From a virus, in the UHGV virus genome UHGV-1948712: DNA of 8,433 nt; one strand, 5' to 3'. The notes under the pieces are model-generated. The model was not told the DNA's origin, did no database searches, and saw nothing but the letters and a program-made list of their open reading frames with translations. Made by a program: the position numbers and the translations under genes. Within the stretch, counting starts at the first letter, position 1; each line of letters starts with the position of its first letter. Below, one piece after another: positions 1-8,433 of this stretch.

Positions 1-11
1 TTATGCGCACC
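1..11 (-). other. dif-like XerC-binding arm, site truncated by the window edge
   Basis: Window bases 1..11 are TTATGCGCACC, the exact reverse complement of GGTGCGCATAA, which I recall as the XerC arm of E. coli dif (GGTGCGCATAA-TGTATA-TTATGTTAAAT). The central region and XerD arm would lie beyond position 1. Confidence 0.5.
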
Positions 12-49
12 AATGGTAAGGATGGCGGGAACTGGCGTTACCGGTGCCG

Positions 50-283
50 TCATTGGTCACAGACCGTAATCCACTGGCCCAGGACGTCTTTCAGGCAATG
101 TTGGCATAAATCCAGTTTTAAGCGATTACTGTCACCAAAAATTGAACCGTATCCAGCTAAGTGATTAACAGACAGAAACTCATTGAACTCAATGTCATCT
201 ACCACCGTCTTCGCATGGCGACCACAGCGATCGCAGGTCTTCGCACATAACATTACAGTATCGCTGGATGTGAAAAATTGCAT
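50..283 (-). CDS. small zinc-ribbon protein (CxxC ... CxxC), 77 aa, function unknown
   Basis: ATG at 283..281 preceded by a strong SD (GAGGAG, 5-nt spacer, minus strand 294..289). Protein has CDRC and CQHC motifs about 39 residues apart, a zinc-ribbon architecture like the N-domain of MqsA/YgiT-type proteins. No Ff phage counterpart that I recognise. Confidence 0.6.
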   Translation of the reverse strand: MQFFTSSDTVMLCAKTCDRCGRHAKTVVDDIEFNEFLSVNHLAGYGSIFGDSNRLKLDLCQHCLKDVLGQWITVCDQ

Positions 284-400
284 TTTATCTCCTCGTAATG
301 CTGCCGCGCCGAATCAGCAATAACGCTAAAAAAACAGAATTGTTCGGCTTGGCCAACCCCTGACACTAACAAAAGCAAGTTTTGTCATTGTCCGGGGTTA

Positions 401-709
401 TCATATAAACCAATAGACCGTCCTTACGCCATTCTGGTTATCAATAACATAGCCGCATTGTTTCCTTAAAAATTCTTCTGCTAAATCAATGGCTTTTACA
501 GAAATCTCATAAGAAGGAAGTAAAGTGTATCCTTTCCCTTCACTGGCAGCTGCTTTGATCGCATCCAGAGTATTATCAATCAGTAACAGAGCAAGTGATG
601 CTTCATTTACCTGAGCCGAAGAACTTCTGGCTGCAAGTGTCATTGTTTTTGCTTCTTCCGCTGTAATCGTTCGTTCTGCCAGAGCAGATAAAATCCCATA
701 AGAATCCAT
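401..709 (-). CDS. hypothetical protein, 102 aa
   Basis: ATG at 709..707 with a weak GGGG SD-like motif upstream. Lies between gene IV and the zinc-ribbon gene on the same strand as the phage genes. Not recognisable as an Ff protein. Confidence 0.5.
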   Translation of the reverse strand: MDSYGILSALAERTITAEEAKTMTLAARSSSAQVNEASLALLLIDNTLDAIKAAASEGKGYTLLPSYEISVKAIDLAEEFLRKQCGYVIDNQNGVRTVYWFI

Positions 710-735
710 TAGTTACCCCAATCAATAATGTCCAT

Positions 736-782
736 TTGATGGATAGCGAGCAGGGCTCACGCACCTACCCGCTATCCATCAA
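736..782. repeat. 13-bp perfect inverted repeat with 21-nt loop immediately after gene IV
   Basis: TTGATGGATAGCG (736..748) and CGCTATCCATCAA (770..782) are exact reverse complements. The upstream arm overlaps the gene IV stop codon. No U-tract follows on the minus-strand transcript, so it is not a canonical intrinsic terminator. Position matches where Ff phages carry the packaging-signal hairpin. Confidence 0.5.
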
Positions 783-2044
783 AGTGGACGAATGATATGT
801 GCTGTAAGCAAAATATACATAATACGCTGTTCATTGCTGTCTGCCTTGCTACTGAAAATCCAGCCTATAAGAGGAATTTTACTTATAACTGGAACTGAAC
901 GCTCGGCATTGCTGAACGATGAATCGATAAGCCCCCCCAATAACAACGTCTGACCATCCTTAATCTGGACTGTCGTCTGAATCTGGCGCTGATTAGTAAT
1001 AATATCGGATGCCTGATCATCATTGCTGATTGAATCAGCGCGAGTGTCGATAGTCAGAACTAGTTGCCCGTTACCCATGACAACAGGCGTTACCTTGAGA
1101 GAAACGCCAACATCATGACGCTCGATAGTCTGAAACGGATTATTTACCCCGGCAGATTCGCCCGTTACCTTTCCGGTGATAAACGGCACATTCTTACCTA
1201 CGGAAATGTAACCAGTCTGACCAGACTGAGTAAGAATACGCGGCGTTGAAATCACCTTAGAGCGTGAATTACTCTGGACAGCACGCAGAGACAGCGCCAA
1301 CACGTTACCATCAAAAATACCAAAAGAACCGCCCGCCGTAGAAAGAGCGCTACCCAGTGCAGAAGTATTAAAGCCCCCCGCAACCTTATGACCGGATGCA
1401 GAACCTGCCGCAAACGATAAATCAACGCCATCAGACAAGCTGGTTTCAAACATCAGCGACTGAATGAGAACCTGATCGCGGGCAACATCCACAGAATTGA
1501 TAAAATCGGACAGAACCGGCAGCAGCTCGTCAGGCGCAGAAACAATCAGCGAGTTATTGCCTGGATAATCCACGACATTACCACCACCATTAGAATCAAG
1601 ATAAATTTTAATCAGTTGCTGAACATCGGACGATCTAACTTTTGTCAGCTTAAAATTTCTGACCGTAAGCGCCACAGGTACTGGCTGGTAAGATGGCTCA
1701 GAAGGAAAAGTATCATAAGACTGGTTATCAGAATCATCGGAATCCGAAACCATCTGTGAAGGTAATTTAGACGGCAAAGAGACTACCGCAGGATTGCCAG
1801 AAAGCATGACAAAACCGTTAGCATTCAGAACAGACTTAAAGAAATCATCAATATTTGTTGGATTAACATCAGCATTAAATACGGTTACGTTTCCTTTAAT
1901 ATCAGGATTAACAATAACAGGCTTGCCAGTTTTTGAAGAATACCGCTGAACAAATGAGCGAACAGATGAATTATTTAAATTAACAGTTTCAGCAGAAACG
2001 CAGAATGAACAGGCAAATAAAAAAGCAACAATAACAGAGCGCAT
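779..2044 (-). CDS. IV: gene IV protein, outer-membrane secretin for virion export
   Basis: 421 aa with clear collinear similarity to M13 pIV as I recall it (e.g. SVPRILT, GESA, VNNPFQTIER, GQTLLLGG, SKIPLIG). Start set at Met 2044 (N-terminal MRSVIVAFLFACSFCVSA looks like a signal peptide) with AGGAG SD at 2059..2055. The longer 779..2137 ORF is an in-frame extension overlapping gene I. Confidence 0.9.
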   Translation of the reverse strand: MRSVIVAFLFACSFCVSAETVNLNNSSVRSFVQRYSSKTGKPVIVNPDIKGNVTVFNADVNPTNIDDFFKSVLNANGFVMLSGNPAVVSLPSKLPSQMVSDSDDSDNQSYDTFPSEPSYQPVPVALTVRNFKLTKVRSSDVQQLIKIYLDSNGGGNVVDYPGNNSLIVSAPDELLPVLSDFINSVDVARDQVLIQSLMFETSLSDGVDLSFAAGSASGHKVAGGFNTSALGSALSTAGGSFGIFDGNVLALSLRAVQSNSRSKVISTPRILTQSGQTGYISVGKNVPFITGKVTGESAGVNNPFQTIERHDVGVSLKVTPVVMGNGQLVLTIDTRADSISNDDQASDIITNQRQIQTTVQIKDGQTLLLGGLIDSSFSNAERSVPVISKIPLIGWIFSSKADSNEQRIMYILLTAHIIRPL

Positions 2045-2051
2045 AATAATA

Positions 2052-2426
2052 TTACTCCTGACAGGTAACAGTCTGTAAATAACGGCCTTTTCTAATAACA
2101 ACACGACAGGCATCTTTAATATCAACGGAATAACCATCTTTAATCAAATCAAAATACTGATATTTCATACCTTTTGCATCAACAAACGTAACGGAAACGT
2201 CAAAGCCAAGTTGTGAAAAAGAATTAATAGAAAGTCGGGGTAAGTCACTGGACGAATCAGGCGTTACCGCCCTCGCCTGTTCAGCATAAGCAGATTTAAT
2301 AGCTGAGATTTCATCAACATTCTTTCCAGACTGGAGCCAGAAACCAAACGCAAGCCCCAGCGCCAAAAAAGAAAGCATTAATATAAGACGGTTCGATTTG
2401 CGAAAATAAATTTTAGTGAGGCGCAT
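2052..2426 (-). CDS. XI: gene XI protein, in-frame internal start within gene I
   Basis: Internal Met at residue 241 of pI (MRLTKIYF...), the same position and context as M13 pXI (MKLTKIYL...), followed by a hydrophobic TM segment. 124 aa. Confidence 0.6.
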   Translation of the reverse strand: MRLTKIYFRKSNRLILMLSFLALGLAFGFWLQSGKNVDEISAIKSAYAEQARAVTPDSSSDLPRLSINSFSQLGFDVSVTFVDAKGMKYQYFDLIKDGYSVDIKDACRVVIRKGRYLQTVTCQE

Positions 2427-3146
2427 ATAATAATTAAATCCTCTGTGAACAGAAAATTGACCGTGCGTGATAAATGGTGGCAAAAGCGAAAATGCGCCAT
2501 GAGGATAATTATCTGTGAACGCTTGTTTGGTATTGTAAGCAGAATAAAGAGATTTTCCTGTATATATCCATTTATCAACAGTGATTGAATTAACATTATC
2601 ACCATATTTGACAATGCCAAAGTGTACCTTTGGTAAAGAAAATCTCGCCCCTGAAACCAAATTCATAATGGAGCCAACAAAAGGAATGTTTAATTTATCT
2701 GAACGGCGACAATAAACAACATGCTCAGCAAGCGCCAGACGAGCTTGCTTATCCATTATCGAAATATCCTGAATCAAAAATATAATATCCCAGCCTAATT
2801 TTCTGGCATGTAAAAACCAGTCAATAACAGGTTGTCTGTCTTTATCACCCCATGAGCGGGAATTAAACCAAGTACCACATTCATCAAGTACAAGGAGGCC
2901 ATTACGGGATTCATCGTAAGATGTATTCCCAATACCAATAGCAAGTAAATCATTTAATGAAGGCTTGTCAGGAATGCGAATAACGCGCGTTTTTTTCGCA
3001 TAACGCCCAACCATAGGCATATTATGCAATTTAAGATCAAGATTAGTGGCAACAGGACAACCCTTAGCAAGTCTTTCCTGTATTCTGGAAACACTAACAA
3101 GTGTCTTGCCTGAGCCTAATTTGCCTGTTACTACATAAACCGCCAT
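2052..3146 (-). CDS. I: gene I protein, Zot-like inner-membrane assembly ATPase
   Basis: 364 aa. N-terminus MAVYVVTGKLGSGKTLVS carries a Walker A motif and is near-identical to M13 pI as recalled; DWFLHARKLGWDIIFL and LALAEHVVYCRR are also conserved. The ATG directly follows the gene VI stop (TAAATG). Confidence 0.92.
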   Translation of the reverse strand: MAVYVVTGKLGSGKTLVSVSRIQERLAKGCPVATNLDLKLHNMPMVGRYAKKTRVIRIPDKPSLNDLLAIGIGNTSYDESRNGLLVLDECGTWFNSRSWGDKDRQPVIDWFLHARKLGWDIIFLIQDISIMDKQARLALAEHVVYCRRSDKLNIPFVGSIMNLVSGARFSLPKVHFGIVKYGDNVNSITVDKWIYTGKSLYSAYNTKQAFTDNYPHGAFSLLPPFITHGQFSVHRGFNYYMRLTKIYFRKSNRLILMLSFLALGLAFGFWLQSGKNVDEISAIKSAYAEQARAVTPDSSSDLPRLSINSFSQLGFDVSVTFVDAKGMKYQYFDLIKDGYSVDIKDACRVVIRKGRYLQTVTCQE

Positions 3147-3488
3147 TTAAATCACCCTGTTTGCATAATCAAGAAATTTTTGTTTTAAATCGAAAACAAA
3201 AACACTGATACGAGTAACCATAATAACGTTAACACACGCCTGAAAATGGTCAGGCAATACAGACGCCATTAAATGGGAGAAATCAGCAGGTAAACCGTTA
3301 TACATGACCTCAGCAAGGTACTGCATTAAAAGCGTAACAGTTGTTGTAATTAATGCGACCAATGCAAAGGCGATTAATCCTGTTCTGGTAGCAAGTCGAG
3401 CTAAAAAAACCGCCACATAGCCAATAAACAAAGGAACAAGACCAATAAGAAAACGCAACAATGCAGGAATACCTAATAATAAAGGCAT
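3147..3488 (-). CDS. VI: gene VI protein, minor coat protein
   Basis: 113 aa hydrophobic protein similar to M13 pVI ([13 protein letters not shown].., C-terminal FVFDLKQK). ATG at 3488..3486 overlaps the gene III TGA stop (TGATG coupling). The ORF track start at 3491 is a GTG one codon upstream. Confidence 0.85.
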   Translation of the reverse strand: MPLLLGIPALLRFLIGLVPLFIGYVAVFLARLATRTGLIAFALVALITTTVTLLMQYLAEVMYNGLPADFSHLMASVLPDHFQACVNVIMVTRISVFVFDLKQKFLDYANRVI

Positions 3489-4747
3489 CACTCACCCCCT
3501 TTGCGAAGCAATGAAGTTAAAGAAGTAAAGACATACCAGAACGTAAGGCAATAAAAAACCCATGAAAGAACATCTTTAATAGTCAGTAATTTATCGCAAC
3601 CAATATCAATCTGATAAACCTCTCCGGGAAAAATAATAAAATCAGAGCAGCCGTTACCATTGGGTAAATTAGGCAGCATAGCACCTTTATTTAAAAATGC
3701 TTCCCATAAAGCACCGTGAGAATCCTTTTCAATTCCCAATTCAGAATCAGCTAAAGTAGAAGCGCCATCTAATTCAGAGTCGCCCTTTCCATAACGAGAA
3801 TCACCACCTGAAGGGTCAGCAAAACGGCCAGCCCCCCGCGTAAGATTGTTAATGGAATCGTCAAGACGATTTATATTATTCCTGGTTTGTTCATCGGCAT
3901 TTTTTTTATCATCTGATGAAGTGTCTTTCTCCGTTAATTTATCATGAATATCGCTGGCTATTTTGGGTGAAGCACCTTCGATCGCAGACTGAATATCACC
4001 TTTAGAAAGACTGGAACCACTAGAGCCACCGCCAGAACTACCGCCAGAACTACCGCCAGAACTACCGCCACCGGACTCACCACCGCCAGACTCACCACCA
4101 CCGGACTCACCACCACCGGACTCACCACCACCATTTTGGGGGGTTGAGGGTTTATCAGAGGGGTCAGCTACAGCACCTGTAGGCTTCCATGTTGCAGCGC
4201 AAACAGTACCATCACCCTGACAAACAATGACACCAGTAGCCTCATATTCACAGCCGTTATAGTAGATATAGCGACCACCATCATATGAATCAACATTATT
4301 AAATACACCTTCTTCTGGCGGCTTCGCTTCACAAATTTCTTCTGGTGTCGGGTCAGTAGGTTTTTCATCAGGAACAGAACGCTGAATATTACCAACAATA
4401 TAAGCCGTTAAAGACCAATATTTATCCTTCTGCCCTGGTGAATCGCTGTAAGTACAATCGCCAGTAAAAACAAGACGGAATTCAGAATCAGGCCAGATAC
4501 CCTCATAAGTTGGTTTAATCCGAGTAAATACACTCTGAGCACTGGATTTAGCACCCTGACAAGCGGAGGCCTGCATAGCAGCATCAATATAGTAAACCGT
4601 TATCTTAGAGCCATCCTGATTGGTTATTTGCTTACTTTCAGCATAGGCAGAACTTTGATAAGTGGATTTAGTAATGCTTTCCCATGACTCAGCATGTGAA
4701 AAAGGAGAAATGAGGACAGCGGAAAGAATTAATATTTTCCTTCTCAT
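3488..4747 (-). CDS. III: gene III protein, adsorption/minor coat protein
   Basis: 419 aa from Met 4747 (signal peptide [19 protein letters not shown]), Cys-rich N-terminal domains, long Gly-rich linker, C-terminal hydrophobic anchor. The longer ORF to 4891 would overlap gene VIII and its terminator. Confidence 0.85.
4010..4132. repeat. tandem 15-nt and 12-nt coding repeats (GGGES x4, GGSS x3) in the gene III linker
   Basis: Near-perfect repeats of CCACCGGACTCACCA-type and CCGCCAGAACTA-type units, translating on the minus strand to [41 protein letters not shown]. Confidence 0.85.
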
Positions 4748-4755
4748 AGTAACCC

Positions 4756-4784
4756 GCTTTAATAAAGGGGCAACGAGTGCCCCT
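4756..4784 (-). terminator. rho-independent terminator between gene VIII and gene III
   Basis: 7-bp GC-rich stem AGGGGCA (4766..4772) / TGCCCCT (4778..4784) with 5-nt loop, followed on the minus-strand transcript by UUAUUAAA. Same location as the strong terminator after gene VIII in Ff phages. Confidence 0.65.
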
Positions 4785-4793
4785 GAGTGAAAT

Positions 4794-5036
4794 TCAAACC
4801 GCTTTTGAAGAGAATTTTTTGAAAATACGAATGGCAAGCCCAGCGCCAACCACAGCAACAACAACAGGCCATACTTTACCAATGAGATCATTTGCCTGAG
4901 TCAACAAAGCATCCATTGCCTGACCTGCATAATCAGTACCACCTGTAGCGCCTTCAGCCGCAAAAGAACTTGCAGAAATAAAAAGCGCAGTTGAAGCCAG
5001 AGCAATTTTATATTTAACAGTAGACAGAATTTTCAT
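4794..5036 (-). CDS. VIII: gene VIII protein, major coat protein precursor
   Basis: 80 aa: signal peptide ending SFA, mature part beginning AEG, a hydrophobic core and basic C-terminus KKFSSKAV (M13: KKFTSKAS). GGAG SD at 5048..5045 with 8-nt spacer. Confidence 0.9.
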
Positions 5037-5055
5037 AGGAATAACTCCATTAAGG

Positions 5056-5151
5056 TTACATTAATCGGTCAGAAAATGATTTAAATGAACCGACCGCATA
5101 GAAAAGGGCAAAACCAAAGGTATAAGCCCCGAAGAAATAAACGATATACAT
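5056..5151 (-). CDS. IX: gene IX protein, minor coat protein
   Basis: 31 aa hydrophobic peptide MYIVYFFGAYTFGFALFYAVGSFKSFSDRLM. ATG overlaps the gene VII stop (TAATG). Size and position match M13 pIX (32 aa). Confidence 0.65.
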   Translation of the reverse strand: MYIVYFFGAYTFGFALFYAVGSFKSFSDRLM

Positions 5152-5237
5152 TAACGAAAGACCCCCGCAGTAATCGCGCCGAGGCCAAAAGAAATAACGA
5201 TGCCAGACGCTATCAAAATTTGAATAACATCGTCCAT
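5151..5237 (-). CDS. VII: gene VII protein, minor coat protein
   Basis: 28 aa hydrophobic peptide MDDVIQILIASGIVISFGLGAITAGVFR starting 2 nt after the gene V stop. Size and position match M13 pVII (33 aa). Confidence 0.65.
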   Translation of the reverse strand: MDDVIQILIASGIVISFGLGAITAGVFR

Positions 5238-5239
5238 AT

Positions 5240-5557
5240 TTAACCTTTGATCTCTGCGATGCCACCATCGGAAGCAACATTATAAGTTACACCTTCCCTA
5301 CCCTCCATTGACCACGCACGGACATAGACAGGAATTTGAACTAATTTCCCAATGAAAGCATTCGCCTGGTTCATTAGACCTGCGTTAACGAGAGCCTGAG
5401 AAACTCGAATAATAATTTGATCCTGCTTTGTACCACCAAAACCATCAGGTATTTCAAGGCCAATACCAATTTCATTATAATAGCCCTGACCATTAACTTT
5501 ATTACGTTGGCGGGCTCCCAACATTTTACCCTTAACGAAAAGACCATAATTAGACAT
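5240..5557 (-). CDS. V: gene V-like ssDNA-binding protein
   Basis: 105 aa ORF in the gene V position with AAAGGA SD (7-nt spacer). Only weak similarity to M13 gVp as recalled (segment GQGYYNEIG vs GKPYSLNEQ), so the call rests mainly on synteny. Confidence 0.65.
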   Translation of the reverse strand: MSNYGLFVKGKMLGARQRNKVNGQGYYNEIGIGLEIPDGFGGTKQDQIIIRVSQALVNAGLMNQANAFIGKLVQIPVYVRAWSMEGREGVTYNVASDGGIAEIKG

Positions 5558-5568
5558 ATTACTTTCCT

Positions 5569-5883
5569 TTAATGCCAGCTACTGGCGTGCGAAATACGGT
5601 TGTAATCGAAAATAAAACCTTTCTCATAAATCCATAAGGGGATTTCCGCTGGCTTGGCTTCCAGCGTTCTTATTAGCGGAACAACGTTATTAGAGTCTGG
5701 TGAATCACAATAGAAATTAATATCGATACCGAACGAAAGCAATTCTCTTCTATGGCGATAAAAAGTGTTATGAGGTAACATTTCTTTCATGTTAGCCCCT
5801 TGTTTCCAAAGTAAATAAGTTGACTGTATTTTTCTTGGCAGTTTCGTTATTTTTTCATCACTTAAAATAGCATTCTGATTCAT
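5569..5883 (-). CDS. X: gene X protein, in-frame internal start within gene II
   Basis: Internal Met (MNQNAILSD...) aligned with the M13 pX start (MNIYDDSAVLD...), preceded by a GGGAG SD at 5894..5890. 104 aa C-terminal portion of pII. Confidence 0.6.
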   Translation of the reverse strand: MNQNAILSDEKITKLPRKIQSTYLLWKQGANMKEMLPHNTFYRHRRELLSFGIDINFYCDSPDSNNVVPLIRTLEAKPAEIPLWIYEKGFIFDYNRISHASSWH

Positions 5884-6663
5884 TTCTATTCTCCCTACAT
5901 ATTCAGAGAATAATTGACGTGGTGTTTTCATATTCCAGTTAGCGCCAAGCGTTAAATTTAAATCAATAAGCTCAGTTGTTCTTAATGTTAATTCAATACG
6001 TAATTTATCTTTCGTCCAGTCCAGTAACCCGGCTCGTACAAACTCTTCGGCTATCTGGTGCCCTTTTTTACCAGAAACGTGTTCATCATATTTTGAATAA
6101 AATTTCAGACTCCATCGACGGGAGTTTTTACCTAAATAAACTGTACCGCCTTTCCCACATGCGCGACCATGGCGTGTTTTAGCTTTAAATTCGGCGGCAT
6201 AAAGCCATGATCTGACATTTTCCAGCGTAGATAATGAATACATGTAATTAATGTCAATACGTGAAATTTTATACTGACCTGCCATAACGGCTTTATAAGA
6301 CGCTAAATCATGAGGAATATTCAATAAGGATAAAATCCTGGCATAGACCGTCAACATGAGCCCTTGTATATCATCCGACCCAACAACAGAATGCCCCTGC
6401 AGAAACTTGGAAGGATTACCATCAATGTACAAATGTGTCGCTTTACCTTCGCCATTAGATCCTATCGATCGTACTTTCATCGTTGCTTCATGCGAACCGC
6501 GAACAGTCAGTCGCTTAACGGTTTCCCACTCAATTGCACCGTCAGCATCAACGCTGACAACACTCCCCGCCGGAAGCGGTTTGTGTGTGCAAGGGAAAAT
6601 CCCGGTAAGCCAATCGATCACGAATAAATCCTCAAAATTACAAAAATGATGACTTACTAACAC
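5569..6663 (-). CDS. II: gene II protein, rolling-circle replication initiator/nickase
   Basis: 364 aa with similarity to M13 pII (KFLQGHSVVG vs KVLQGHNVFG; NNVVPLIR vs NNVVPLVR). The start is a GTG at 6663..6661 with a stop 3 codons upstream and no obvious SD, so the exact start is uncertain. Confidence 0.85.
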   Translation of the reverse strand: MLVSHHFCNFEDLFVIDWLTGIFPCTHKPLPAGSVVSVDADGAIEWETVKRLTVRGSHEATMKVRSIGSNGEGKATHLYIDGNPSKFLQGHSVVGSDDIQGLMLTVYARILSLLNIPHDLASYKAVMAGQYKISRIDINYMYSLSTLENVRSWLYAAEFKAKTRHGRACGKGGTVYLGKNSRRWSLKFYSKYDEHVSGKKGHQIAEEFVRAGLLDWTKDKLRIELTLRTTELIDLNLTLGANWNMKTPRQLFSEYVGRIEMNQNAILSDEKITKLPRKIQSTYLLWKQGANMKEMLPHNTFYRHRRELLSFGIDINFYCDSPDSNNVVPLIRTLEAKPAEIPLWIYEKGFIFDYNRISHASSWH

Positions 6664-6779
6664 ATGAGTTCAGTAGTTCATTAGTGTTTTAACATTACAC
6701 CAGTGAGCTAGTGAGTTCAAGAGGATTGGATGATATGAGTTCATGAGCATGTATACTCACTTCAAATATTGCATTGAAC
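6664..6779. repeat. cluster of GAGTTCA/GTTCA repeats in the divergent II / accessory-cassette intergenic region
   Basis: GAGTTCA at 6666..6672, 6713..6719 and 6738..6744; GTTCA at 6676..6680; inverted TGAAC at 6775..6779; an ACTCAC inverted copy at 6755..6760. Five pentamer copies in about 115 bp is far more than expected by chance. Confidence 0.5.
6692..6720 (-). promoter_or_regulatory. candidate sigma70 promoter for gene II
   Basis: On the minus strand: -35 TTGAAC (6720..6715), 17-nt spacer, -10 TAATGT (6697..6692), about 30 nt upstream of the gene II start. Sequence-only prediction. Confidence 0.4.
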
Positions 6780-6790
6780 GAGCGTAAAAA

Positions 6791-6973
6791 ATGGCAAAGC
6801 GCACGACTTATAACGTGACGGAAGAAAGAAAAATGAAACTAGAACGACTGGCTATAAATGCCAGTGTAAAACTAGGAAAAACAATTACATGGACAGAGAT
6901 TTTAGGTTATCTGATTGATAACTACTCTAAAGATGCAGCAGAAGATCTCATGTCTGCCAAACAAAAGGATTAA
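6791..6973 (+). CDS. ribbon-helix-helix-like small DNA-binding regulator, 60 aa
   Basis: MAKRTTYNVTEERKMKLERLAINASVKLGKTITWTEILGYLIDNY fits the RHH pattern (basic beta-strand, helix A, G-containing turn, helix B) of CopG/Arc/MetJ-type proteins. Transcribed divergently from gene II. No SD before the ATG, so it may be leaderless or start elsewhere. Confidence 0.5.
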   Translation: MAKRTTYNVTEERKMKLERLAINASVKLGKTITWTEILGYLIDNYSKDAAEDLMSAKQKD

Positions 6974-7026
6974 GTACCACGAATGGTACAAACGTGCAGT
7001 ATTACCTACACTGCACGTTCTTTATT
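6974..7026 (+). terminator. tandem hairpins, the second terminator-like
   Basis: Hairpin 1: GTACCA (6974..6979) / TGGTAC (6984..6989), 4-nt loop. Hairpin 2: AACGTGCAGT (6991..7000) / ACTGCACGTT (7010..7019), 9-nt loop, followed by CTTTATT. Sits just after the RHH gene stop. Confidence 0.5.
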
Positions 7027-7061
7027 GTGCGGATTTTGAACAGCAACAAAGGATCAAAAGG

Positions 7062-7484
7062 ATGAGTAGAAATAACGAAACAAGCGGCGTTGAACTGGTT
7101 GTTGTAGGCGTATTTGCTTTCTGTCTGGCAGTTGTTGCCTGGCTAATGAAAACTTTCGATGTTGAATGGCAAACAGCACTGGAAACTGCGCCTGGCCTGA
7201 TAGTCTGGCTGCTTGTTGTCGGTGCGGGGATCTTTTTCGGGATCAAAATGGAAACTGGCCTTATTCGCTGGGGTGCTCCACTGGCGATCGCCCTTCTGAT
7301 TCCGGTATTCAAGCCAATTCTTAAGGAAGCTGCCGGAGTTCGTGAAACGGGTGGGCTGGTTTTCGATGATATGGTTTCGTGGTATGGAACTGGCTGGGGA
7401 ATGTCTCTGATGTTCTTCGGGATTCTTATTGTCGGATACGGTCTGCTTTATTGGTGGCACAGAAGGAATTCATATTATTGGTGA
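7062..7484 (+). CDS. small integral membrane protein (3-4 predicted TM helices), 140 aa
   Basis: ATG at 7062 with AAGGA SD at 7049..7053 (8-nt spacer). Hydrophobic stretches LVVVGVFAFCLAVVAWL, GLIVWLLVVGAGIFFGI, APLAIALLIPVF and SLMFFGILIVGYGLLYWW. The ORF track extension back to 6915 would cross the hairpins and overlap the RHH gene, so the internal start is preferred. Confidence 0.5.
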   Translation: MSRNNETSGVELVVVGVFAFCLAVVAWLMKTFDVEWQTALETAPGLIVWLLVVGAGIFFGIKMETGLIRWGAPLAIALLIPVFKPILKEAAGVRETGGLVFDDMVSWYGTGWGMSLMFFGILIVGYGLLYWWHRRNSYYW

Positions 7485-7495
7485 ATGTCAATCAC

Positions 7496-7519
7496 TTGAA
7501 TTTACAGGTTTTTTATAAT
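7496..7519 (+). promoter_or_regulatory. candidate promoter: perfect -10 TATAAT with poorly spaced -35
   Basis: TATAAT at 7514..7519. The nearest TTGAAT (7496..7501) gives only a 12-nt spacer, so the -35 is doubtful. About 40 nt upstream of the 7557 gene. Confidence 0.25.
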
Positions 7520-7556
7520 TTCAGCCCGCGCTAGTTTGATATTGTGAAAGGTGAAG

Positions 7557-8132
7557 ATGAGTATGCAACCGAATGAAGAAATGGACCTCAGGAAATTTTA
7601 CGCAGAGGGAACAGCTGACTACTTAAAAACTAAAATCAAAAAAAGCGAACGACTTTTAAAAATAAACCAATATCTATCATTTGCCCTCCCTGTCCTAGTT
7701 GGAGGATACGCATCGGTTGATCACAGCTCCAAATATTTTGATTTTTTAGTTTGGGGCACAGGGATATTATCAGTGATAGTCTTGCTTTCTAATTTATACA
7801 CGCTGGTCATGAAGACTGATGAAAATTTATCTCGATATCTGGAATCATACTCTTTCAATAAACTCCTAACTGATTTGTATGGCGAACTGTCGAGCATGTT
7901 TAAATCAAAGACAGGCAACCAGCAACCCGCTAACCATTTGTTTTCAGTGATAAAATCAAAAGATGACTTCAATGCCAAGGAAGATGAAAAATATGTTAGC
8001 AATAATGATAAGAAACGGATTATGTTCGACATTCTGGTAAAGAAAAATAAAGAATGCGTACGTTGCAATAAAATACCGACTAAATTTAACAAGCGGAAAG
8101 GTTGCACAAATTGTGGCAATCTCGTGAAATAA
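7557..8132 (+). CDS. 2-TM membrane protein with C-terminal zinc ribbon, 191 aa
   Basis: ATG at 7557 after AAAGGTGA (7546..7553); the ORF track start is a GTG at 7551. Two adjacent hydrophobic helices (YLSFALPVLVGGYASV; FLVWGTGILSVIVLLSNLYTLV), a K/E/N-rich soluble region, then CVRCNK...CTNCGN. Very AT-rich coding sequence. Confidence 0.6.
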   Translation: MSMQPNEEMDLRKFYAEGTADYLKTKIKKSERLLKINQYLSFALPVLVGGYASVDHSSKYFDFLVWGTGILSVIVLLSNLYTLVMKTDENLSRYLESYSFNKLLTDLYGELSSMFKSKTGNQQPANHLFSVIKSKDDFNAKEDEKYVSNNDKKRIMFDILVKKNKECVRCNKIPTKFNKRKGCTNCGNLVK

Positions 8133-8143
8133 AGGAGAAACAA

Positions 8144-8335
8144 ATGAGTTATAAAGTAGATCAAGTCAAAGCTCTCTGGCTTCAATTGACTGATGCGGAG
8201 AAAAAAGAATTTACAACATATCTTTTTAATGGTGAAAAAAAATCCTTACGTGAAGGATTCGAAAGTTTTAGTGTGAATAAAAGCACTACAATGCAATTTG
8301 GTGATGCAAACGTCTGCCCTGCTTGCGGAAAATAA
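8144..8335 (+). CDS. small protein with C-terminal CPAC motif, 63 aa
   Basis: ATG at 8144 preceded by a strong SD AAAGGAG (8131..8137, 6-nt spacer), 11 nt after the stop of the upstream gene, suggesting translational coupling. Ends ...GDANVCPACGK. The ORF track start at 8102 overlaps the upstream gene and lacks an SD. Confidence 0.55.
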   Translation: MSYKVDQVKALWLQLTDAEKKEFTTYLFNGEKKSLREGFESFSVNKSTTMQFGDANVCPACGK

Positions 8336-8376
8336 AATCTAAAAGATTTTGGTTCGCACAATGACGTTATGCTAAA

Positions 8377-8413
8377 GAGGCCGCTGCGGGATTCGATTTT
8401 CGCAGCGGCCTTT
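8377..8413 (+). terminator. rho-independent terminator closing the plus-strand cassette
   Basis: 11-bp GC-rich stem AGGCCGCTGCG (8377..8387) / CGCAGCGGCCT (8400..8410), 12-nt loop, followed by TTTT. Confidence 0.75.
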
Positions 8414-8433
8414 TCAACATAACGAGTCCTACA

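Follow-up and report, generated by a model that had tools for sequence, protein, structure and literature searches.

A predicted IKe-type attachment protein with a length-polymorphic, repeat-encoded tether in a UPΦ-group filamentous prophage

The window considered here, that is, the whole 8,433-nucleotide stretch of UHGV-1948712, is an inovirus genome with its genes read on the minus strand, as identified from an ORF map and Pfam searches. Gene III lies between gVIII and gVI in the inovirus morphogenesis module, a placement given by the ORF map, by Pfam and by the PGAP annotation of orthologous prophages. Every morphogenesis gene of the window is intact in the ORF map. The genes and the one intergenic feature are listed below in the order in which they are read.

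approximately 5569-6663, minus strand: gII (ORF map)
5240-5557, minus strand: gV (Pfam Putative_G5P)
between gV and gVIII in gene order, minus strand: gVII-like short ORF (ORF map)
4794-5036, minus strand: gVIII (Pfam Phage_coatGP8)
4766-4784, minus strand: 7-bp GC-rich hairpin followed by UUAUU, in the gap between gVIII and gIII (RNA fold centroid -12.1 kcal/mol)
3488-4747, minus strand: gene III, the g3p/pIII attachment protein, 419 aa plus stop (ORF list and translation)
3147-3491, minus strand: gVI (Pfam DUF5455, at the gVI position)
2052-3146, minus strand: gI/Zot (ORF map)
after gI/Zot in gene order, minus strand: gIV secretin (ORF map)
401-709 and 50-283, minus strand: two small ORFs after gene IV, at the h1/h2 position (ORF map)

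The two small ORFs correspond to the proteins WP_000378924/WP_000378923 and WP_001159442 of the Escherichia coli genomes C10 and ECONIH2, and no family exceeded the cut-off for either in a Pfam scan. For the accessory ORFs, neither Pfam nor PADLOC returned anything over threshold.

We investigated the identity of the phage by comparison of the whole window with complete E. coli genomes (megablast). It is 99.3% identical to a prophage of E. coli C10, where the match corresponds to a single unit within a tandem prophage adjoining an intact dif site, and the first 11 nucleotides of the window (TTATGCGCACC) form the XerC arm of dif. Positions 1-7482 are 98.4% identical at the nucleotide level to a prophage of ECONIH2, with which the window also shares its gene order and h1/h2 proteins; positions 7483-8348, a variable accessory cassette, are the sole part unlike ECONIH2. 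As ECONIH2 is named as the host of a tandem triple of UPΦ (Shapiro & Putonti, Virus Evol 2020, PMC7307601), the 98.4% identity places the window in the UPΦ group, as one dif-integrated unit of a Lineavirus-like filamentous prophage. The UPΦ viruses are described in PMC7307601 as prophages of E. coli, Salmonella, Klebsiella, Citrobacter and Yersinia enterocolitica that are integrated at dif and repeated in tandem, with structural genes that resemble those of IKe and I2-2 and with two unique genes, h1 and h2.

A CUS-1/YpfΦ phage had first been assumed, since these are also dif-integrated, tandem filamentous prophages of Enterobacterales (CUS-1 in E. coli K1 and YpfΦ in Yersinia pestis) and UM146 was among the matches, and was ruled out by PMC7307601 together with the comparison with ECONIH2. 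According to the same paper, UPΦ has only gII and gV in common with YpfΦ; the gII/gV module of CUS-1 and YpfΦ shares more than 85% identity with its UPΦ counterpart, whereas all the other genes, including gene III (puvA), have less than 20% amino acid identity. When the whole window was searched against a phage collection with megablast, approximately 190 nucleotides of gene IV were matched, in IKe and PEar only. The phage relatives of gene III were found by tblastn and not by megablast; those found were all IKe-like, with 53-54% identity to the pIII proteins of IKe, I2-2 and PEar over approximately 89% of the length of the product.

Gene III starts at an ATG (4745-4747) and ends at a TGA (3488-3490) on the minus strand. 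The start is the one chosen by PGAP for the C10 orthologue, and the orthologues in both C10 and ECONIH2 are annotated by PGAP as 'attachment protein'. One base is shared between this TGA and the start codon (ATG) of gene VI, an arrangement also present in IKe. Upstream, the hairpin in the gVIII-gIII gap has a fold z-score of only -0.79, which is not significant, and it was not called by a simple terminator scan; a stem-loop annotated in IKe as 'pot. transcription termination' sits at the same position, and by this weak analogy the hairpin is probably an attenuating terminator. Within the product, we identified the following parts.

4691-4747, minus strand: signal peptide, aa 1-19 (column-for-column alignment with the 19-aa signal peptide annotated in IKe g3p)
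4364-4690, minus strand: domain 1, aa 20-128, a predicted IKe-type pilus-binding domain containing C63 and C98 (Pfam, PDB and structural model)
4163-4363, minus strand: Pro-rich hinge and domain 2, aa 129-195, a predicted TolA-binding domain of N1 type (Pfam, PDB and structural model)
4010-4132, minus strand: Gly/Ser/Glu linker, aa 206-246 (TRF and unit-by-unit listing)
3491-4009, minus strand: C-terminal domain, aa 247-419, for virion tip, membrane insertion and assembly termination (alignment)
3506-3571, minus strand: hydrophobic membrane anchor, aa 393-414, followed by RKGGE (aligned with the anchor helix in the pIII proteins of f1, IKe and If1)

Both the mature IKe protein and PDB entry 4EO0 begin at the aligned motif D/E-x-WESITKS, and the signal peptide of the window g3p is presumably cleaved at the corresponding position.

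Ahead of the linker are six cysteines (C63, C98, C139, C166, C176 and C183), as originally noted, the first two in domain 1 and the other four in domain 2. The folds of both N-terminal domains (4EO0 and 4EO1) were solved in 2012 and are represented in Pfam. For domain 1, we identified a match to the Pfam family PF21443 (G3P_pilus-bind) at aa 22-125, with an E-value of 2.2e-25 and 89.3 bits against a cut-off of 27, and a match of aa 20-128 to 4EO0, the pilus-binding domain of IKe (E 3e-26); identity to IKe and I2-2 in this domain is 47%. The assignment to PF21443 comes from Pfam and not from the UPΦ paper. Domain 2 matches PF05357 (Phage_Coat_A) at aa 135-176 (E 9e-6, 25.8 bits, cut-off 20.8), and aa 130-195 match 4EO1, the TolA-binding domain of IKe, with an E-value of 4e-25 and 72% identity. 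It also matches the N1 domain of fd/M13 (2G3P and 1TOL; E approximately 1e-13, 45% identity); in the PDB sequence search the g3p proteins of f1 and fd rank next after 4EO0 and 4EO1, with N1 matching aa 137-224. Three of the four cysteines of domain 2 (C139, C166 and C183) are invariant across seven of seven aligned pIII proteins, and C176 is present in six of the seven, being absent from If1. By homology, domain 2 is thus of the Ff N1 type and is predicted to bind TolA.

An AlphaFold model of aa 20-204, built from 31 homologues, has a mean pLDDT of 93.6. It superimposes on 4EO0 with a TM-score of 0.95 (rmsd 1.1 Å over 106 residues) and on 4EO1 with a TM-score of 0.90 (rmsd 1.1 Å), the N1 structures of fd and IF1 coming next. 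The same two-domain composition is present in all the relatives identified.

In the C-terminal domain, identity to IKe is 52%, rising to 62% over the last 80 residues, and identity to M13 is 22%. Residues 196-416 align with the C domain of f1 pIII in the cryo-EM entry 8B3O (domain E 2.8e-8), in an alignment that takes in the CDK motif and the C-terminus, and the domain contains the cysteine pair C367/C384. Within the anchor, Y399, T402, F403, V406, L414 and R415 are invariant in the alignment with the pIII proteins of f1, IKe and If1. The pIII-like C-terminal anchor that had been proposed from the DNA was recovered by these alignments.

The protein has the architecture of IKe (Lineavirus) and not the layout of the Ff phages. 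With the g3p proteins of IKe and I2-2 it has in common the order of domains, the cysteine pattern, the position between gVIII and gVI and the one-nucleotide overlap of stop and start codons. Their linker is also encoded by tandem repeats, with the motif GGDT/GGGS in place of the GGGES/GGSS of the window, and these two phages, in contrast to the UPΦ phage of the window, do not integrate at dif. The pIII of Erwinia phages PEar1-6 has the same IKe-type architecture (53% identity overall, 45% in domain 1 and 69% in domain 2), with a linker of GGDT/GGST type, and is encoded in non-integrating genomes of approximately 6.6 kb that have E. amylovora as host. In the Ff phages M13, f1 and fd, by contrast, the order is N1, linker, F-pilus-binding N2 and a second linker, whereas the window protein has an unrelated predicted pilus-binding domain followed by the N1-type domain and a single linker. 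Pfam and PDB searches detected no homologue of the Ff N2 domain in the window g3p, and in the alignment a gap stands opposite the block of approximately 130 residues that forms N2 in M13 and If1. What is shared with the Ff phages is the N1-type domain (45% identity, with four conserved cysteines), the C-terminal domain and anchor (22-29% identity), and Gly-rich linkers that likewise derive from 15-nt tandem repeats of similar regularity.

The original prediction had described the receptor-binding region as unlike the N1 and N2 domains of the Ff phages, with N-terminal domains that could not be aligned to M13 pIII. This is correct for the overall layout, which is not that of N1, linker and N2, and for domain 1; it does not hold for domain 2, which is of N1 type and aligns with the M13 domain, and both domains have homologues in IKe. 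Identity of the N-terminal region to a pIII of known specificity is intermediate, being high in the TolA-binding domain (72%) and only 47% in the pilus-binding domain.

We additionally resolved the linker into its repeat units. These are, in order, four GGGES units, one GGGSS, two GGSS, a further GGGSS and a terminal GSS. The four GGGES units are each encoded by 15 nucleotides (GGTGGTGGTGAGTCC, with zero or one mismatch each) and the two GGSS units by identical 12-nt copies (GGCGGTAGTTCT). TRF reported 3.6 copies at period 12 with 100% matches, and 4.6 copies at period 15 with 90% matches and a score of 117. The tandem repetition of the tract is far beyond chance, and near-perfect repeats of 15 and 12 nucleotides occur at 4010-4132 exactly as first described. 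The tract had also been called unusually regular, and here the comparison with relatives gave a different result: the 15-nt arrays of M13 gene III have 95% and 90% matches (scores 102 and 115) and the array of IKe gene III has 96%, so that the regularity of the linker is ordinary for the pIII family and no higher than that of M13 or IKe.

The linker differs in length between otherwise near-identical proteins. The g3p of C10 has 438 residues, against 419 in the window, and is distinguished by one G-to-S change and by 19 extra linker residues, which wholly account for the 57-nt difference between the C10 unit (8490 nt) and the window (8433 nt). Across more than 30 full-length, near-identical proteins (the full-length members of two 90%-identity clusters), the linker ranges from 24 to 73 residues, while the part before it is fixed at 204 residues and the part after it at 173; the units in these clusters number 2-11 for the GGGES type and 1-3 for GGSS. 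The number of GGGDT units is likewise variable in a clade that is more distant (75-86% identity). At the nucleotide level, gene III spans 1218-1386 nt, with 21 different lengths, among the 46 complete E. coli genomes listed at an identity of at least 95%, and all the listed spans but one differ from the 1260 nt of the window by a multiple of three. The one out-of-frame span comes from EC5502, an assembly rich in errors that contains approximately 15 tandem copies and many frameshifts, and some of the variation in length among public assemblies may stem from errors of assembly or of long-read sequencing. Domains 1, 2 and C are 94-100% conserved among UPΦ alleles, with the changes confined to in-frame repeats. 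The exact allele of the window, with its four GGGES and three GGSS-type units in 419 residues, was absent from a collection of 15 billion proteins.

The expansion and contraction of the tract among isolates that had been anticipated from the repeats is thus seen between constant flanks, in agreement with PMC7307601, which reports 95 g3p variants in 229 genomes, with GGGES copy number as the chief difference among isolates, and a UPφ901 g3p with one 'GGGES' more than its sisters. The g3p of UPφ901 and its relatives is the closest known system to that of the window, sharing the phage group, gene order, dif integration, h1/h2 and the GGGES repeat. The phage group, its kinship to IKe and I2-2 and the copy-number variation of GGGES were already published in 2020 (PMC7307601).

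Taken together, we favour the reading (with a probability of roughly 0.88) that gene III of this UPΦ prophage encodes an IKe-type attachment protein whose tether is polymorphic in length by gain and loss of repeats, with the variation being near-neutral. The product would consist of a cleaved signal peptide, a pilus-binding domain, a short Pro-rich hinge, a TolA-binding domain, one tether and the C domain, the last of which would cap the virion and, before assembly, anchor g3p in the inner membrane. By homology, infection would start with the binding of domain 1 to the tip of a retractile pilus, probably a conjugative one; retraction of the pilus would then allow domain 2 to reach periplasmic TolA, with subsequent insertion of the C domain into the inner membrane and release of the DNA. 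We infer that replication slippage or unequal recombination adds and removes units in the head-to-tail repeats of 15 and 12 nucleotides; unequal recombination would be favoured at the repeats by the presence of tandem prophage copies. The expected outcome would be a linker of polymorphic length between two constant flanks.

For the identity of the receptor, domain 1 (aa 20-128) is the relevant part of g3p, and it is the fastest-diverging part across relatives, at 21-58% identity compared with 56-88% for domain 2. Replacement of domain 1 by an unrelated fold in distant relatives was considered and ruled out, as weak matches to PF21443 are still present in most of the most distant of them, indicating fast divergence of a single fold instead of domain replacement. 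Such rapid divergence fits receptor-driven evolution. Specificity for the F-pilus is unlikely in the UPΦ g3p, because there is no counterpart of the Ff N2 domain and only a single Gly-rich linker. The suggestion, made from the DNA, of a different pilus or receptor specificity thus finds agreement insofar as it concerns the F-pilus; the receptor that is used instead is not readable from the sequence of domain 1, since an identity of only 47% to IKe establishes the fold and not the receptor. The pili used by IKe itself are of the IncN and IncI2 types (Bradley 1983, as cited in PMC7307601). In PMC7307601, the receptor of UPΦ is reported as not known and new infections were not obtained; its authors suspect IncI pili, on the grounds that IKe and I2-2 infect IncI2 hosts and that all the UPφ901 hosts of that study carried IncI plasmids. 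Our literature search found no later paper that settles the UPΦ receptor.

It is possible, and we put it forward tentatively, that domain 1 has switched receptor from the IncN/IncI2 pili of IKe and I2-2 to another surface structure, such as the IncI1 pilus, another plasmid-borne pilus or a chromosomally encoded one. The divergence of domain 1 from both IKe and I2-2 is consistent with such a switch, as these two phages are 91% identical to each other in the pilus-binding domain (and 97% in the TolA-binding domain), and its rate relative to domain 2 is typical of receptor-driven divergence; the IncI plasmids of all the UPφ901 hosts point in the same direction. A switch, if true, would explain the occurrence of near-identical UPΦ prophages in five genera of Enterobacterales (PMC7307601), and would make the PF21443 fold a general pilus-tip adaptor that can be re-targeted. 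However, the fold and the cysteine pair of domain 1 are fully conserved, and 47% identity is also compatible with a retained specificity for P-type conjugative pili. A switched receptor would in any case be a refinement of the favoured reading, changing the ligand but not the mechanism, and not a true alternative to it.

The near-neutrality of the length variation can be weighed against an adaptive role, in which the number of repeats would tune the reach and flexibility of the tether, and with them infectivity or host range, making the linker a contingency locus. Such a role might be suspected from the very high diversity of alleles in phages that are otherwise near-clonal (the 95 variants in 229 genomes and the range of 24-73 residues), from the independent variability of the GGGDT repeat in the related clade, and from the preservation of frame in all the listed gene lengths but one. 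The preservation of frame does not discriminate between the two, however, because purifying selection against frameshifts combined with a high rate of slippage would yield the same pattern. Length is, moreover, not associated with host species among the matches listed, in which one 90% cluster spans E. coli, Salmonella, Citrobacter and Klebsiella with differing linker lengths, and a longer natural Gly-rich region gave no advantage in IKe (Bruno & Bradbury 1997, as cited in PMC7307601). We accordingly regard adaptive tuning as improbable, and near-neutral variation as most likely, by analogy with that one study of IKe as it is cited.

Least plausible is that gene III is what is left of a domesticated prophage in decay, with a linker that varies only under relaxed constraint, as could be imagined from the failure of laboratory re-infection (PMC7307601) and from frameshifted or truncated copies in some public genomes, given that the gene III ORF and all the morphogenesis genes of the window are intact, that conservation of 94-100% in domains 1, 2 and C is broken only by in-frame changes in the repeats, and that UPφ901 DNA is released from cultures in a DNase-resistant form (PMC7307601).

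The linker of the favoured reading, an IKe-type attachment protein with a length-polymorphic tether, is a true VNTR, which breaks short-read assemblies and inflates counts of protein variants. Uncritical use of gene III for the phylogeny or clustering of UPΦ prophages is to be avoided, and the VNTR could be used as a fine-scale typing marker for these viruses, which are found widely in clinical isolates, urinary ones among them, of E. coli, Salmonella, Klebsiella, Citrobacter and Yersinia.

In a collection of species-representative genomes, we identified four loci only, one of them in a bin labelled 'Candidatus Nanosynbacter', where it is almost certainly a binning contaminant.

The window corresponds exactly to a single unit of a tandem prophage integrated at dif. 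Its nucleotides 1-11 (TTATGCGCACC) are the XerC arm of the Escherichia coli dif site, and in E. coli C10, which carries a near-identical tandem prophage, head-to-tail copies of the unit adjoin an intact dif (3984-4011 of the genomic locus L001). Outside the core phage genes, we identified the following features within this unit, in window coordinates:

50-283, minus strand: h2, a UPΦ-specific gene encoding 77 aa
401-709, minus strand: h1, a UPΦ-specific gene encoding 102 aa
7483-8348: accessory cassette, with ORFs at 7551-8132 (plus strand) and 8102-8335 (plus strand)
8383-8420: strong, GC-rich inverted repeat followed by a T run (GAGGCCGCTGCG...CGCAGCGGCCTTTT)

The inverted repeat is situated at the 3' end of the plus-strand accessory genes, directly ahead of the dif junction. 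Together with the T run it is probably a terminator, or it might instead form a component of the attP structure. The accessory cassette is absent from the UPΦ copy of ECONIH2, which has different ORFs at that place. The cassette contains a 193-aa ORF, named by PGAP as a "mobilome CxxCx(11)CxxC protein", for which Pfam and PADLOC scans returned no match. Pfam searches of h1 and h2 gave sub-threshold matches only; the h2 protein contains CxxxCxxC and CxxC motifs, and these suggest that it is a small zinc ribbon.

Many public entries for the gene III attachment protein (g3p) in the P0001 and P0002 clusters of near-identical UPΦ proteins are "partial" sequences of 186-217 aa. Their source contigs stop where tandem prophage copies join, or else in or close to the linker repeat, which inflates the apparent diversity of the protein. 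We additionally noted an annotated E. coli protein of 508 aa (P0060) in which the secretin domains PF03958 and PF00263 are found together with the g3p pilus-binding domain PF21443; the ORF is probably chimeric or misassembled. A similarity between pIV and pIII is also mentioned in the PEar phage paper. A 97%-identical g3p was identified on a 25-kb contig (L007, JARKOR010000214.1) from a metagenome bin labelled Candidatus Nanosynbacter, a Saccharibacteria genome; the contig almost certainly comes from an enterobacterium and ended up in the wrong bin.

Between two substrains of E. coli BH100, the gene III span was 1296 nt in MG2014 (H86) versus 1326 nt in MG2017 (H95/H96), a gap of 30 nt that equals two GGGES units and reflects either a change within the laboratory lineage or a difference in assembly. 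Finally, about 15 tandem prophage copies are assembled at the dif region of the E. coli EC5502 chromosome (L012, NZ_CP092647.1), many of their genes carrying frameshift annotations; the record has the appearance of noisy long reads assembled from either a high-copy tandem array or replicative-form DNA.
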